IMG/VR virus record: IMGVR_UViG_3300031994_000022
Source of the DNA: a virus
Taxonomy: Duplodnaviria > Caudoviricetes
DNA length: 64,000 nucleotides
Direction: 5' to 3' (one strand)
Below are positions 15,664 to 21,236 of this stretch, one piece after another (position 1 is the first letter of the stretch; every line of letters begins with the position of its first letter). The position numbers and the translations under genes were made by a program. Under the pieces are notes generated by a model. It did no database searches, was not told where the DNA came from, and was given only the letters and a program-made list of their open reading frames with translations.

Positions 15664-15691
15664 TTCTCCATATTCCTCCTTTCTTTAAAAA

Positions 15692-15730
15692 TAACAAAAC
15701 GCAGAGCAGACCTTTTACAATCTACTCTGC
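15692..15730 (-). terminator. terminator-like hairpin closing the RNA array
   Basis: GCAGAGTAGA/TCTGCTCTGC stem followed by GTTTTGTTATTTTT. Confidence 0.55.
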
Positions 15731-15763
15731 AACCGTAATCAATACGGTTCTCTCCTTATATGT

Positions 15764-15806
15764 GCCTCCATTGGACACTTCATTGAGAGGTGTGGAGGCT
15801 TCTGTC
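15764..15806 (-). ncRNA. abiF-like RNA hairpin, copy B
   Basis: GACAGAA-GCCTCCA-CACCTCTCAATGAAGTGTCCAA-TGGAGGC; covaries with copy A. Confidence 0.6.
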
Positions 15807-15811
15807 AAAAT

Positions 15812-15858
15812 GACCCGACGTGGTACGCATCAAAGTGAGAGGCGTGTCGGGTTCTGTC
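15812..15858 (-). ncRNA. abiF-like RNA hairpin, copy A
   Basis: GACAGAA-CCCGAC-ACGCCTCTCACTTTGATGCGTACCAC-GTCGGG; resembles the abiF motif as recalled. Confidence 0.7.
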
Positions 15859-16353
15859 CAATATAAAAGGAGCTGTGTGTACCAGCTCCAATTCCTCGCA
15901 ATATTGGCAGTAATTACAGTTTACTGCCGATAATTCCTTAGCGAGTCTCGGCGTTTTTCTTTTCAGATATCTGCATCCTAGTCAGGGTAAGACTGCCGCA
16001 GCTTACGGTAGAACCTCCACGTAAGAACCTGACAAACCTTACGCTTCAACGGTTAAACTTAACTAGTGAGTAATATTCTAACCGTTACTCGCGGTACGAA
16101 AATGTCACGAAAACTATATACTATTCGTGACACAATCTCAGCTCCTCCTACCAATAGGATAGGTGAGTAAGTAGATAATGCGTAGTCCCGGTGTTAACAC
16201 ATAACACTTACCACGACGGAGGCAGGATACTACGACTTACAATATCTGTCAGAGCGTACTCCACATGGAAGTCTGACAATCCCATGCTTCACAGCAGATC
16301 CGCCAATACCCAAGGGCGAAGAGTAGTTTAAGTGCTTAACTCAGGCACAAACA

Positions 16354-16396
16354 TTTTCAAACCGACCTTTTATATTGCGGTAATCGGTCTCCGCAT
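16354..16396 (-). ncRNA. CptI-like pseudoknot
   Basis: TGCGG-AGACCGATTA-CCGCA-ATATAAAA-GGTCGG-TTTGAAAA. Confidence 0.7.
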
Positions 16397-16610
16397 GGGT
16401 TCTGTTTATTTTGCAACTTTCATTTGATGGCTTATGGTAAGTTGCCACCTTTATACATCTCCACATTCACCGCATACCATCACGGATTCCGCTTCATAGA
16501 CATCTACACTTAGGCGGTGAACACCATGTATTGGCTCTGTTCTCGCTCCACTCTTGTGTCTTTACCACAGATTTAAAGTCTACACCTACGCTACTGACTA
16601 CCAATATTTT

Positions 16611-16644
16611 GAATCGCTAGAAGTTTTAAGTCGTCCTAAAGACC
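16611..16644 (-). ncRNA. ToxI-like pseudoknot, copy 1
   Basis: GGTC-TTTAGGAC-GACT-TAAAAC-TTCTAG; 30/34 identical to 16911-16944. Confidence 0.65.
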
Positions 16645-16910
16645 ATATGGTTATCCGATATTGCAGTGTTTTACAGATTCGTCATCCAACCATATGAACA
16701 CCTCTGGAAACGTGCCTCCTCGGAATAGGGCTACACCAGTACCATTACGCACCTACGTGTTTAGGTCTTTTCGTTGACCAAATATTAAAGCGACTCGGCG
16801 CGGATCTTCACCGCCATCGTGCTAGTTATAGGGAATTCGCCTCGGTTACCAACCTTAACGCCGCTTATAATAATCCACTTTTTATTTGGAAGCGATGGGA
16901 CACTTCGTTT

Positions 16911-16944
16911 GAATCACTAGGAGTTTTAGGTCATCCTAAAGACC
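16911..16944 (-). ncRNA. ToxI-like pseudoknot, copy 2
   Basis: GGTC-TTTAGGAT-GACC-TAAAAC-TCCTAG. Confidence 0.65.
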
Positions 16945-17361
16945 GCTCGTAATGGGTTTAATGTCTCCATACCGACAAAAAGAACGGCATTGATGCTGGC
17001 ATCGCTACCGCTGAAAAACCTTTGGCTTTTCGTTCATAATCCACCGTTGTAGCATAGGTCGTGGGACACCTACCGCACCGTTCTTGGAATTTCTTTGTTG
17101 TGGGAGTTACCCACTTCATTATTTTTCCTCACACTTCGCCGCCACACTAAATGACTATAAAGGTTCTCACTTGAATTTTAAGGTGGACGAGATATTCCAC
17201 CAGTAGAGTTATTGCGCATTACGGTAACTTCGCTTACCTCGGTACTGTCGGTTAAGGGAGCCGACTCCTATTGGATAGCTGACAACATATCACCTATTGC
17301 CGAGCTTTCATGGTATATTTAACGCCCCCCACTAGGGAAAGAGGTGCTATCCGTTGTCCTC

Positions 17362-17507
17362 TTATATTTTACTGCCCTATCAAAACCATCATAGGACTCT
17401 TCACCCGGTCAATTTTTATTTTACCGACGAGTCAGAACCGTCACTCGTCATCTTCGCTCGGTCAGTTTTTATATTACCGACGAGTCAGAACCGTCACTCG
17501 TCTCATC
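17362..17507 (-). repeat. three tandem 52-53 nt structured repeats
   Basis: hairpins at 17479-17502, 17426-17449, 17374-17397; loop GAYGGTTYTG conserved, stem covaries. Confidence 0.85.
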
Positions 17508-17567
17508 TATTATGGAATTATTTTTTGTTTTATTTGGTTGATTTGGATCATTTGCGTAATACCATTT

Positions 17568-17595
17568 AAAAAAGACGACAAATTAACGTCGTCTT
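17568..17595 (-). terminator. intrinsic terminator after portal
   Basis: AAGACGAC/GTCGTCTT stem plus T-run. Confidence 0.7.
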
Positions 17596-17621
17596 AAAAA
17601 TATTGTTTTATTATCTAAAAG

Positions 17622-19178
17622 TTATCCTTCGCTCCTTGCCCTAGAACGTTCACCTGAATCAGATAAATCTCCTTCATCTACTTGTGGTCTTCCTTGTCCA
17701 ATTTCAGAAGTATATCCATCTTCAGTACCACTTTGGGTATAAGATGAATTTAGAGGACGAAGTTTATCACTAAGACCTAATAATTCTTCTTCTACATAAT
17801 TCATACAGATAGTGTCTTTTTCACTAAATCCATTAAGAGTATTGATAGCTAACTTAGTTGGTAATCCATACTGACCAGACGAAAGTAGCTGTTCTCTATA
17901 GTCTGACTTTGTATATGTTGAAATTGGCATAAAACGTACTTTGCAGTCATCGGCACCCTCATAACTAAGCATCCTCATTACCCAAGATTGTATTTGTGGT
18001 AGAAGAGAAGAGATGGCAAATTCTGTGTTGGCAATGGTAGCCATCTTAAATGCATAAGTATTATTGATGGTAGCACCATTAAGTATTTCAGCACCACCAG
18101 CCGTATTTAGTACTTGCTCTGTAGCTTTAGCAACTTTAGTAGTATCAGTTGCTTTATCATCACCAAAGCTTATTTCATGCAATTGTCCAGGAACAATGGC
18201 AGTAGCTATATAATCCGGAATACTATCATTAAGCTTATCAAAATATGGTAATGAAAGATCCGGGTCGATTTTCCAATCGTCTATTCGCTTCGATCCGGTT
18301 ATGGTTTCTAATTCGTACCACAGAAGCTTGTATACGCTCGCAGCATCCCCCGCTGCTTGAATGTCCTCAAGGTCTGCAAGATTTATAATACTATTAAATA
18401 TACCGCTCCAGGGACTGACTATTACATCCAAATCTTCAATTCTAAACTTCATACAAACTTGATACTTAGAATCTATCAGTTGCCACTTTTCACCAGTGCT
18501 TTGATAATTTTTCCAAACATCTTCAAATACTTCTGGTATATATTCAATAAGTTCTTGTCTATTTCTTAGCCATGAGGCATCAAAAAAATAAGACAGATCA
18601 CCTGTCATAAATTTTCCAGCTATCTTACAATAATCAGCTGGTAATTGCATATGAAATACCCCAGTATCATCATGAATATAGATACCATAATAAATATCTT
18701 GAACAAAACAAGTAAATATTATTGGATAAAATTCCTGCTGTAATCTCATTATTGAAACTGCATCAAGAGTATTTTGATAAGATTTCATTATCTTATCAGC
18801 ATTATTTTCTTTGACTAAATCATATTTAGGAATAATGCTTCGACAATCTAAACAAAACATTTCACTAAAGAAATGAACAATCCTATAAAATACATGAGAC
18901 CTATACAGAAGGTACCAGGCTAACGCTCGCAAATTCTTTTCTTGAGATCCGATATTTTGTAAATATTGTCTTAATCTTTCTTTATCAAAAGTAGTAATTG
19001 TTTTATTATAAGTCTTACCAATATCTCTTAATTGTTTAAGCATCTTATCTTTATTTTCAGTAGCAAAATTTGTAACCATATCTAAACGGTCTTTATTTTT
19101 GCTATACCAATCTTTTATTTCAGCCACTGTCGGCTGTTTAGGTGCATTCGACACCTGTGTAGTCTTTGTTCGTGCCAA
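17622..19178 (-). CDS. portal protein
   Basis: 518 aa directly downstream of terminase; C-terminal SSYTQSG...GRP tail typical of SPbeta-like portals. Confidence 0.75.
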   Translation of the reverse strand: MARTKTTQVSNAPKQPTVAEIKDWYSKNKDRLDMVTNFATENKDKMLKQLRDIGKTYNKTITTFDKERLRQYLQNIGSQEKNLRALAWYLLYRSHVFYRIVHFFSEMFCLDCRSIIPKYDLVKENNADKIMKSYQNTLDAVSIMRLQQEFYPIIFTCFVQDIYYGIYIHDDTGVFHMQLPADYCKIAGKFMTGDLSYFFDASWLRNRQELIEYIPEVFEDVWKNYQSTGEKWQLIDSKYQVCMKFRIEDLDVIVSPWSGIFNSIINLADLEDIQAAGDAASVYKLLWYELETITGSKRIDDWKIDPDLSLPYFDKLNDSIPDYIATAIVPGQLHEISFGDDKATDTTKVAKATEQVLNTAGGAEILNGATINNTYAFKMATIANTEFAISSLLPQIQSWVMRMLSYEGADDCKVRFMPISTYTKSDYREQLLSSGQYGLPTKLAINTLNGFSEKDTICMNYVEEELLGLSDKLRPLNSSYTQSGTEDGYTSEIGQGRPQVDEGDLSDSGERSRARSEG

Positions 19179-19190
19179 GTCGCACCTCCT

Positions 19191-21236
19191 TTATCTGCCC
19201 ACTATTTTTGCTGGGCGAATTGTTAATTTATCTAAAAGATAATTTGAAGATACTTTTGGCTTCTGAAGAAGCAACTTACGTCTTTCCTCAGCCAATGCGT
19301 GTCCAAGCATACAACAAGTATAGGCACGGTCGTCATGCATTTTATTAGCTTTTTCTGGGGTTAACTCAAAAGAGTCCTTACCGGATTCCCTTTTCTTTCT
19401 CACCATATTAACCAATTCTTCTTTCAAAGCATCGATATTTGCTAAAGCAATTTTATCTTTCCAATCCAACTTTATAGTTTTAGTATTAACCGATTGTACC
19501 TTACCTAATTCTTCTTGTAATTTATCTTCAAATTCTTTTTCATTTAGTTTTTTCTTTTTTAATTCTTCAATTATTCTTCCACGTTCTTTGTCTAATTTCT
19601 TCTGGTCAATATCAAATACAGTAAGATATTCTTTATTATCATATGTACTTGTGAAACCAATCTTATCTTGATTAAGCATTTCTATTAGTGCTTCATACAT
19701 CATCGATTTAAATTTAGCCGGTTCCATAAGATGAACCTTGTCCACCGCATTTGGGAATCTACCAACATAATCAGCAGAGTATTCTTTATCTATTAATCCT
19801 CTATGAATAATACCATCAGAAGTTTCCCAATCTGGCATCAAGTAATCGGCTATGTTCACACCGCCTCCTCCCGTACCAGCATCAATCCAAATACCGACAA
19901 TATTTTCATATGCATCAGCACCAGCGTTGTAATCAAGAATCATTTGTTTTAAATATTCAATCTGATCAGGCGTTCTCATAGGACTCTTGATTCGTTTACC
20001 GACATCCAAAAGATTAACACCATTAACAATCTTTGCTCTTTTATCAATGCTTCCATCTACTTGTATAAAATCATAAAACTCAGCCACAAGTATAAATGAG
20101 TTATCCACCTTACGAGCAGGGTCATAAAATAACCCATATTTCTTATCACCAGTTTCATTACAATGAATTGGCTTTCGAGTTTCCTCATTACGAGTAATAA
20201 CACCACGTTTTACAATGGCATCCGAACCAGCTTCTGTTGTAAATTGACAGTAATACTCGCGCCTCGCCTTTTCTGGATTTGTTCTCATTTCAGATTCGAC
20301 AGTAGAGCGAGAGAGTAGTGGAGCAATAACTTCACCATGTAATGTCGGTTTGAATGCGAGTTCACAATCAATGTGAAGAACACAATAATCTGGGTCTCCC
20401 ATAATCTGACGTTTAGCAAAATCTCTATATAAAGAATAAAACTTTGTATCAGTAGAAGATGCACTACTAATATAAAACTTTTGGTTTGGTATATCTGTGG
20501 CAAACGTTCTTTGTCTAATAGGGTCAATAGAACGACCACTTGCATCTTTACCAGTCTTTAAGCTTTTATTTACAATAGCAAACGCCGAATATACATTCAT
20601 CATTTCTTCCGATAAAAAACCGCTTTCATCGAAGATTACGTTTCCTCTCATTCCTCTCTTTTTATCTATATTACTGTTGAGCGTCTGAGTCATCGACCCA
20701 TTATAGACTTCGTAATTGAATCCATTAGAAGAATGACTAAAACCATCGCCAGCTGCATTTTTGATTTTTATTTCATCTTTAAATATTTTTCCTGTAGAAC
20801 CTGCAAAGGTATCTATGTTATCATTTGCAATACGTTCGAGCGTTGTGAAAGTTTGTTCTGCCTGAGAACCAGATCCTGAAGCAATATATGTCCAATAATT
20901 ACAGAAACACATGTCCTTCATCATGGTTTCTAAATCTATAACTGTTGATTTTCCCCAACCTCGAGTCGCAACGATTAATACATTTGGACAATTCCATGAA
21001 CGCTGTACTGCTAAAGCTTGAGAATCCAAAAGTTCAATATTAAACCAAAAATCTATACCAGCTACGGGATTACATTGAAAATATTTCTGCATCATCGCAA
21101 TAGCCTGTAACGCTTCAATTTTTCTCGTAGACATAGGATAATCAATTGGCTTTACAAATATTCCATAATCTTTATAGAAATCTTTATCATATTGCAAATC
21201 ATAATCAAAACTATTCGGTGTCCATATCTGACTCAT
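19191..21236 (-). CDS. terL: terminase large subunit
   Basis: Walker A ATRGWGKS, Walker B VIFDESG, nuclease motifs YDPAR...D, IDAGTGGGG, HDDRAY. Confidence 0.9.
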   Translation of the reverse strand: MSQIWTPNSFDYDLQYDKDFYKDYGIFVKPIDYPMSTRKIEALQAIAMMQKYFQCNPVAGIDFWFNIELLDSQALAVQRSWNCPNVLIVATRGWGKSTVIDLETMMKDMCFCNYWTYIASGSGSQAEQTFTTLERIANDNIDTFAGSTGKIFKDEIKIKNAAGDGFSHSSNGFNYEVYNGSMTQTLNSNIDKKRGMRGNVIFDESGFLSEEMMNVYSAFAIVNKSLKTGKDASGRSIDPIRQRTFATDIPNQKFYISSASSTDTKFYSLYRDFAKRQIMGDPDYCVLHIDCELAFKPTLHGEVIAPLLSRSTVESEMRTNPEKARREYYCQFTTEAGSDAIVKRGVITRNEETRKPIHCNETGDKKYGLFYDPARKVDNSFILVAEFYDFIQVDGSIDKRAKIVNGVNLLDVGKRIKSPMRTPDQIEYLKQMILDYNAGADAYENIVGIWIDAGTGGGGVNIADYLMPDWETSDGIIHRGLIDKEYSADYVGRFPNAVDKVHLMEPAKFKSMMYEALIEMLNQDKIGFTSTYDNKEYLTVFDIDQKKLDKERGRIIEELKKKKLNEKEFEDKLQEELGKVQSVNTKTIKLDWKDKIALANIDALKEELVNMVRKKRESGKDSFELTPEKANKMHDDRAYTCCMLGHALAEERRKLLLQKPKVSSNYLLDKLTIRPAKIVGR

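Follow-up and report, generated by a model that had tools for sequence, protein, structure and literature searches.

Between the portal and head genes of a rumen phage (Duplodnaviria; Caudoviricetes) lies a gene-free gap whose minus strand can be drawn as a series of small pseudoknots, and this gap is the subject of the present analysis. The window under study, a stretch of 64,000 nucleotides (nt), is part of the 141.8-kb IMG/VR virus record IMGVR_UViG_3300031994_000022, which is 95% complete. All genes in the first half are found on the minus strand, in the order terminase (19191-21236), portal (17622-19178), gap (15664-17621) and then head genes; the gap measures 1958 nt, contains no open reading frame (ORF) of more than 53 amino acids (aa), and has a GC content of 0.44, as compared with approximately 0.34 in its flanks. 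A sequence-only reading of this region had listed seven unrelated pseudoknots (PK1 to PK7, below) and had proposed that they act as toxin-less ‘decoys’ for distinct specificity groups of the ToxN/AbiQ toxins. All seven sets of stems are indeed located on the minus strand where that reading had placed them, in the H-type (hairpin-type) order S1-L1-S2-L2-S1'-L3-S2' (S, stem; L, loop), and two of them (PK1 and PK5) can be assigned to families of repeat RNA that are linked to toxin-like genes elsewhere.

16065-16098, minus strand: PK1, a lone unit assigned to a type III antitoxin-like family of repeat RNA
16247-16286, minus strand: PK2, a candidate pseudoknot of 5+7 base pairs (bp) in an indel cassette of ~124 nt
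16321-16348, minus strand: PK3, a candidate pseudoknot of 4+4 bp with a UUAAAC linker, in a 115-nt cassette (16298-16412)
16752-16780, minus strand: PK4, a GGUC/GACC hairpin with a UAAACA linker and a second helix of 3 bp
16945-16977, minus strand: PK5, assigned as a solitary unit of a GGUC-N8-GACC-UWAAAC repeat RNA
17164-17201, minus strand: PK6, whose S1 is an internal hairpin of a larger ‘core’ RNA
17237-17265, minus strand: PK7, whose S1 is likewise an internal hairpin of the core

About fifteen non-redundant relatives of the phage, from rumen and gut metagenomes, were collected via portal-based searches and pattern scans. The distance from portal to head genes ranges among them from 176 to 1958 nt, and the gap is a mosaic of discrete cassettes that are retained, missing or rearranged from one relative to another, with sharp breakpoints, whereas the units themselves remain intact. 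A blastn search returned no match to the gap among GenBank phages. Searches with Rfam, at expect values (E) of up to 10, found no ToxI, preQ1, pistol, ROOL, GOLLD or GP20-b RNA in the gap, and gave only sub-threshold matches on the minus strand (to drum twice and to abiF once).

PK1 consists of a CCG...CGG hairpin, a 6-nt loop strand, a UAGAAUA linker and a complementary 3' strand, and appears among the relatives as a clean indel cassette of ~40 nt that is conserved in L001, L036 and L038. The exact pattern has no match in 185,579 bacterial species genomes, and the family was reached through its toxin protein: a pattern with fixed stems and a free linker gave two matches in an otherwise unrelated viral contig (L039), where a consensus promoter, the PK1-like units, a terminator with a T-run, a ribosome-binding site and an ORF of 148 aa follow one another. 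The protein encoded by that ORF belongs to a family of 20 proteins from phage contigs, Clostridium and Paenibacillus, and four further loci (L042-L045) each display two to three tandem units of ~48 nt upstream of the toxin; the complete loci L039, L042 and L043 reside on phage contigs, inside structural modules. A model (R1) made from 14 toxin-linked units of other loci (alignment A3), from which PK1 itself had been left out, recovers PK1 at 43.4 bits (E 7e-08), with the second-best match in the 64-kb window at 13.1 bits, and gives the copies of PK1 in the relatives the same score. In the 14 units, S2 (the helix formed between the loop and the 3' strand) is paired in 100% of cells, as compared with 31-46% in slid controls, and five of its six pairs have changed on both sides. 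Judged by this homology and covariation, PK1 is a member of the toxin-linked repeat RNA family in the form of an orphan copy: the window holds one unit only, in place of a tandem array, and no toxin.

The L039 toxin is matched by the NCBIfam families TenpIN (E 2e-08) and CptIN (E 1e-4), at 34.5 and 22.1 bits as compared with curated cut-offs of 90, and therefore falls outside both families as these are defined; it has no match in Pfam (and hence none to PF13958) or in PADLOC. Its structure model (predicted local distance difference test score, pLDDT, of 88) can be superimposed on CptN, ToxN and AbiQ with template modeling (TM) scores of 0.66-0.73, those for the entries 4RMO (CptN), 2XD0 (ToxN) and 4GLK (AbiQ) being 0.69-0.73, and its sequence profile matches CptN (4RMO) at E 0.0035. 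The partner of PK1-type units is thus predicted by modeling to have the type III toxin fold that is common to CptN, ToxN and AbiQ.

For PK5, a generic two-unit pattern of the UWAAAC layout found 22 sites in bacterial species genomes, 15 of them in Clostridia (including Lachnospiraceae, Acutalibacteraceae, Roseburia and Butyrivibrio, with many represented by metagenome-assembled genomes from the rumen). The 15 clostridial arrays are built in the same order, comprising a promoter, two to four tandem units of 32-33 nt, a conserved box and a terminator, and in 11 of them a nuclease frame of 190-235 aa comes next (one contig ends too early to tell). UWAAAC, which the sequence-only reading had noticed as a frequent linker, is the near-invariant linker of this bacterial repeat family, PK5 included. 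Four array-linked proteins match the Pfam family PBECR4 (PF18813) at 52.6-72 bits, well over its cut-off of 27, and the array-linked PBECR4-like protein carries no NCBIfam or PADLOC name; its structure model (pLDDT 47) is too poor for a fold comparison. Against the Rfam family GP20-b, bacterial arrays score 32.2, 25.4 and 22.8 bits, all below the gathering score of 36.2.

In an alignment of 27 bacterial units (A4), 98.4% of the cells are paired, as compared with 34-50% in slid controls, and six pairs have changed on both sides. The model built from these units (R2) matches PK5 at 28.7 bits (E 2.6e-05), the second-best match in the window being at 9.2 bits. Compared with the units of Acutalibacteraceae (L049/L052), PK5 is identical in its loop, linker and S2, and the closing pair of S1 has been changed on both sides; the differences among nine phage copies of PK5 are all wobble-compatible, and the 5' end of PK5 coincides exactly with cassette breakpoints. 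A near-exact PK5 pattern occurs in IMG/VR in the same phage lineage only. PK5 is therefore assigned, from sequence and pairing, to the PBECR4-linked family of repeat RNAs, again as an orphan copy. The pairing of such repeats with a PBECR4-like gene is undescribed in the literature searched, in keeping with the earlier suggestion that some of the units point to RNA-antitoxin families not yet described.

Six-frame searches of the whole 141.8-kb record found no ToxN (PF13958), no member of the TenpIN family (NF047358), no relative of the L039 toxin, no PBECR4 (PF18813) and no Abi_2 (PF07751); the gap contains neither a toxin pseudogene nor a long frame, and six-frame genome searches were empty at E up to 10. 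The gap itself is represented in RNA libraries: of its sampled words, 83% occur in one sheep-gut metatranscriptome library and 71% in another, and it is covered by the first two of the following features.

15676-17289: RNA-library contig X3, this stretch in one piece, at a depth of 20.8
15845-17261: RNA-library contig X4, at a depth of 10.9
15700-15731, minus strand: a terminator-like hairpin

The portal region has a depth of 0-5 in the RNA libraries, and a DNA run is flat and continuous at 14-16, which gives a weak hint that the gap forms one abundant RNA of ~1.6 kb. Contig X4 ends at 15845 and 17261 in sequencing-adapter letters, and these adapter-marked ends may correspond to frequent ends of RNA fragments.

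The decoy idea, which fits PK1 and PK5 as matches to toxin-linked repeats, does not extend to PK6 and PK7, which are substructures of a larger conserved RNA rather than free units.

17037-17365, minus strand: core RNA of ~330 nt, containing PK7, PK6 and a further knot (17041-17072)
17041-17072, minus strand: an extra H-type pseudoknot absent from the earlier list, whose second helix changes from CCAC/GUGG to CCUC/GAGG in four relatives

The consensus fold of the core is a single domain, closed by an invariant long-range helix of 9 bp. Four of the five pairs of PK6-S1 have changed on both sides, and PK6 is a true pseudoknot, since both of its helices are kept in three sequence versions. For PK7 the hairpin is supported and the second helix is not: its partner strand, GAGG, has been lost from two relatives (L003 and L018) and shares positions with a local hairpin, such that PK7 is best described as a hairpin only. 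The 5' part of the core (17293-17355) has a 63-nt match of 79% identity, found by blastn, in the 140-kb Clostridium argentinense plasmid pRSJ17_1 (L033:3001-3063); this sole match among the plasmids searched is located in an unannotated intergenic region and is uninformative.

The remaining elements (PK2, PK3 and PK4) have their stems in place, as had been claimed, but those stems are invariant, are without a homologue outside the lineage and have ordinary folding energies. PK2 is identical in four relatives with variable flanks; its cassette has a folding z of -0.2, and in the nested minimum-energy fold the 7-bp helix is formed but the 5-bp helix is not. It has no significant match in 401 Lachnospiraceae genomes, and in IMG/VR is seen in this lineage only. 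The five copies of PK3 differ at unpaired positions alone, and its cassette has a folding z of -0.84; PK3 has no match to R2, and its pattern is confined to this lineage in IMG/VR. PK4 is present in five copies with identical stems, with breakpoints on both flanks in L001 and L036, and the score of its 4+3 bp is at chance level; its match to R2 (0.8 bits) has no significance, and a pattern search of IMG/VR returned it from this phage lineage only.

The description of the seven pseudoknots as ‘unrelated’ has to be withdrawn, because PK3, PK4 and PK5 have one layout in common (a 4-bp S1, a loop of 8-9 nt, a UWAAAC linker, and a strand that pairs with the loop), which is also displayed by an additional unit, D2a.

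16908-16944, minus strand: D2a, directly after PK5, consisting of GGUC, an 8-nt loop, GACC, UAAAAC and a loop-pairing strand

A second copy of D2a (16608-16644) forms a direct repeat with it at a spacing of 300 nt, and retains the pairing with G-U changes. A near-exact pattern for this unit, too, is confined in IMG/VR to the lineage of this phage. PK3, PK4 and the two D2a copies may be diverged relatives of PK5; for D2a, membership in the PK5 family is not established, since its match to R2 (9.1 bits) is limited to a 10-nt segment, GACCUAAAAC.

The density of pseudoknots was assessed by enumerating non-overlapping pseudoknots, with Watson-Crick pairs only, inside an envelope defined by the seven elements. 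The minus strand of 16062-17265 contains 12, 8, 5 and 3 pseudoknots with at least 7, 8, 9 and 10 bp, respectively. This exceeds dinucleotide-shuffled sequence (means of 4.9, 2.2, 0.9 and 0.3 for the same four thresholds, with 0, 0, 0 and 3 of 500 shuffles reaching the observed count) and the plus strand of the gap (5, 3, 1 and 0), but is not above the densest of this phage's own coding tiles (23 tiles, with means of 7.9, 4.5, 2.2 and 1.0 and maxima of 11, 8, 6 and 3). When G-U pairs are allowed, the excess on the minus strand mostly vanishes. Because coding tiles reach the same counts, and because the envelope was fitted post hoc, the count alone is weak, and it was the comparison among relatives that decided: PK1 and PK5 are upheld as real pseudoknots by homology and covariation, and PK6 by covariation. 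A separate idea, that the units act as a CsrA ‘sponge’ by presenting GGA in hairpin loops, was rejected, as GGA occurs in only two of them.

The gap also contains RNAs that resemble two families already in Rfam. The abiF match reaches 32.1 bits, as compared with a gathering score of 37; abiF RNA has been treated as an antitoxin in Clostridioides difficile. The drum-like RNAs are as follows.

15946-16054, minus strand: drum-like copy 1, Rfam RF02958, 37.9 bits (gathering score 43)
16409-16502, minus strand: drum-like copy 2, Rfam RF02958, 26.4 bits (gathering score 43)

For drum, a 3' terminator and an association with nearby protein genes have been reported (Weinberg et al. 2017, PMC5737381). 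PBECR4 genes are present in 76 of 401 sampled Lachnospiraceae genomes, and at all 20 of the PBECR4 loci that were inspected the gene is preceded by a promoter, a non-coding stretch of 150-200 nt, a terminator and a ribosome-binding site. Model R2 identified no 33-nt units at the 30 best canonical PBECR4 loci, which places those repeats in a divergent PBECR4 subgroup only. In one group of Lachnospiraceae loci, a genuine drum RNA (89-100 bits with RF02958 at the four loci of this group that were scanned) is positioned directly upstream of PBECR4 with a terminator between the two (L096:1325-1440, L109:1325-1438, L116:1327-1437 and L119:1335-1444), in the layout of a type III toxin-antitoxin locus; since drum precedes canonical PBECR4, the two drum-like RNAs of the gap represent a second PBECR4-linked class. 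Yet another PBECR4 group has tandem repeats of 50-54 nt located ~200 nt upstream of the gene (L095, L098-L103 and L106), in which a covarying hairpin is followed by GUUGGCAGRCAACRGAAAAA and for which no Rfam match was seen. This last class has no match in the window by nhmmer, and BLAST of PBECR4-upstream RNAs against the gap was likewise empty.

Canonical 33-nt units were found in 14 viral contigs, only one of which (L125) carries the nuclease gene. The viral orphan units are situated between tRNA genes, in operon gaps, in a promoter-unit-terminator cassette, or beside a 53-nt hairpin repeat of a type also seen in the window, with two loci too short to judge; in L132 the promoter, unit, box and terminator are all kept in the absence of a nuclease gene. 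The orphan units L126:2717-2749 and L128:3910-3942 come from other phages, in which each is flanked by tRNA genes within a long gene-free region; tRNA processing enzymes would free them there as unit-sized RNAs. In L130:3468-3560, from yet another phage, a copy of the 53-nt hairpin repeat (the type found at window positions 17398-17502) is immediately 5' of an orphan 33-nt unit, such that these modules are found together in more than one lineage.

Further modules of the gap were noted. In nearly every relative, positions 16096-16177 (minus strand) carry a motif consisting of CCUAUCC..GUAGG..GAGCUGAGAUU, a variable, covarying hairpin and then UUUUCG; the motif is usually found just 5' of a drum-like RNA, and may form one RNA with drum. 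A palindromic hairpin (16099-16135) has counterparts, also palindromic and with 87-94% identity, in nine Lachnospiraceae genomes (L077-L084 and L093) and is exchanged for other sequences in the phage relatives; in the three bacterial loci that were inspected, the palindrome adjoins the start of an ORF of 200-235 aa in an operator-like manner. Finally, the module just upstream of PK5 (16980-17017, minus strand) has 92% identity over 38 nt to L076:1302-1339, which is part of a stand-alone, small-RNA-like gene of a Lachnospiraceae genome, with its own -10 box and terminator and with no downstream ORF.

The interpretation favored here, for which the probability is put somewhat above even, is that PK1 and PK5 are decoys that keep host toxins off, housed in a transcribed, modular array of small structured RNAs. 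Partner toxicity, RNA-protein binding and the decoy effect itself are inferred from locus architecture and from the precedent of pseudo-ToxI, which is encoded by Pectobacterium phage PhiTE and reportedly imitates the type III antitoxin ToxI. The gap between the portal and head genes would be transcribed as such an array, in which PK1 and PK5 are single, toxin-less copies of units found in other phages, in prophages and in genomes of Clostridia as two to four tandem copies, running from promoter to terminator directly upstream of an RNase toxin gene; the partner of PK1 would be a small toxin with the CptN/ToxN/AbiQ fold, and that of PK5 a divergent PBECR4 nuclease (BECR fold). When infection stops host transcription, the labile antitoxin RNA of the host would decay and the toxin would be freed; the phage transcript would then provide look-alikes of the antitoxin units, which would capture the toxin and hold it inactive, whereupon abortive infection would fail. 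The drum-like and abiF-like RNAs of the array may play the same role for further toxins.

The original decoy proposal is partly supported (homology and covariation are observed, toxin genes are lacking from the phage, and RNA libraries contain the gap), and for toxin families other than the one that had been named. None of the matches is to PF13958, and the predicted partners are a distant TenpN/CptN-like group and a BECR-fold class, in place of ToxN/AbiQ specificity groups. Tandem-repeat homologues with a downstream gene, which were expected on the host side, exist for PK1 and PK5, but no homologue of PK2, PK3 or PK4 was encountered in the genomes searched.

A broader proposal, advanced tentatively and judged to fall just short of an even chance, is that PBECR4 nucleases (present in about one-fifth of the sampled Lachnospiraceae genomes) serve as toxins in type III-like toxin-antitoxin or defense systems that make up a large class not yet described, whose RNA antitoxins would take at least three forms: drum, the GP20-b-related 33-nt GGUC...UWAAAC repeats, and the repeats of 50-54 nt. 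In the gut and rumen, phages of Firmicutes would counter these toxins, along with classical type III toxins, by means of transcribed multi-decoy arrays or of single units placed between tRNA genes. The literature searched contains no paper that connects PBECR4, or drum, with an RNA acting as an antitoxin, and none with the name GP20-b. If true, the proposal would provide a function for drum RNA, an orphan motif since 2017.

Several observations weigh against the decoy reading. Five of the seven elements are outside its mechanism, and PK1 and PK5 are each present as a single copy, with no array. All nine phage copies of PK5 lack the bacterial 3' tail (the CCAUU end and, in helix 2, the second, GG/CC part), an absence which, together with the changed closing pair of S1, makes recognition of PK5 by a toxin uncertain. 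Three of the 15 bacterial arrays are without a nuclease gene, and both the toxicity of PBECR4-like proteins and their binding by the upstream RNA are presumed by analogy. Host carriage of either system is an assumption. The phage record is 5% incomplete, and contigs from RNA libraries cannot prove transcription, timing, transcript ends or processing. The contrast between viral and bacterial orphans is only suggestive, since the viral and bacterial scans needed one and two tandem units, respectively, and the samples are not comparable.

Phage contigs that carry a complete locus of one or the other kind (L039, L042 and L043 for PK1; L125 for PK5), and the survival of promoter, unit, box and terminator without a nuclease gene in L132, also fit a different history, in which the orphan units would be decayed remnants of phage toxin-antitoxin loci that have lost the toxin and retained a functionless RNA. 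This seems unlikely, however, given that the helices of PK1 and PK5 are kept across relatives with portals ~80% identical while the surrounding cassettes are reshuffled, that RNAs linked to at least three or four toxin families (PK1, PK5, drum-like and abiF-like) are assembled in one transcribed gap, and that no toxin pseudogene is detectable in the gap or the genome (six-frame searches, E up to 10). Alternatively, the whole stretch might be one large, ROOL- or GOLLD-like structural RNA of several domains, with a role unrelated to toxins and with pseudoknots that are purely architectural. Coverage of ~1.6 kb in one piece by RNA-library contigs and the GC content of 0.44 between flanks of 0.34 would suit such an RNA, and the ~330-nt core, as a closed multi-helix domain with covarying pseudoknots, would explain PK6 and PK7 well. 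It is difficult to reconcile, however, with a gap that varies from 176 to 1958 nt among relatives through cassettes that are present, absent or reordered, with homologues of PK1, PK5 and drum that stand alone beside toxin genes elsewhere, and with the lack of any ROOL or GOLLD match in Rfam at E up to 10, and little probability is given to it.

A third possibility concerns other elements, namely that PK2, PK3, PK4 and the second helix of PK7 reflect chance complementarity in a conserved non-coding region and are not formed, and here the balance is about even. Coding tiles of the same phage can hold as many pseudoknots; none of these four candidates displays a pair that has changed on both sides; the partner strand of PK7 is gone from two relatives and overlapped by a local hairpin; and the cassettes of PK2 and PK3 have ordinary energies (z of -0.2 and -0.84). 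Searches outside the lineage returned no homologue. On the other hand, variation is seen at unpaired and flanking positions and spares the stems, and PK3 and PK4 copy the S1-loop-linker spacing of the verified PK5 family, UWAAAC included.

One phage transcript appears to collect look-alikes for several toxin families, and would constitute a compact, modular counter-defense locus. More generally, drum and one or two other orphan RNA motifs are tied to a single predicted RNase family by the layout of promoter, structured RNA, terminator and PBECR4 gene, such that the function of those motifs is directly testable by standard toxicity-rescue assays; the corresponding covariance models can be used for finding both defense loci and phage decoys in metagenomes.

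Among known RNAs, GP20-b (RF03003) is close in design to the PK5-type repeats, as its consensus contains two tandem units of the form GGUC-N8-GNCN-UAAAA and bacterial arrays reach up to 32.2 bits with it, but those arrays remain under its gathering score and the units of the window give no match. GP20-b and drum were both described as orphan motifs (Weinberg et al. 2017, PMC5737381), and no published function for either was found in the literature searched; the copies of drum in the window, unlike those of the bacterial loci, score below the gathering threshold. TenpI is composed of longer, non-identical, pseudoknot-forming repeats with an adenosine stretch, according to a 2025 survey of tenpIN (PMC12283969) in which orphan units are unmentioned. 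PK1-type loci resemble TenpIN and CptIN: behind a promoter they carry tandem pseudoknot repeats that are not identical to one another and have an A-rich linker, and these are followed by a terminator and a small toxin. They differ in that the L039 toxin is below both curated cut-offs and in that the window offers one unit and no toxin.

The closest parallel is pseudo-ToxI, which is to our knowledge the only well-known RNA decoy of an antitoxin. In both cases a phage carries a homologue of an RNA-antitoxin repeat without the toxin gene, and the proposed effect is that a host abortive-infection RNase stays inhibited. The partners differ, being a distant TenpN/CptN-like family and a BECR-fold nuclease instead of ToxN, and the units of the window are single copies as opposed to expanded repeats. 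Where pseudo-ToxI is one mimic, moreover, the gap described here brings together at least two unrelated families of units in one array with drum-like and abiF-like RNAs.

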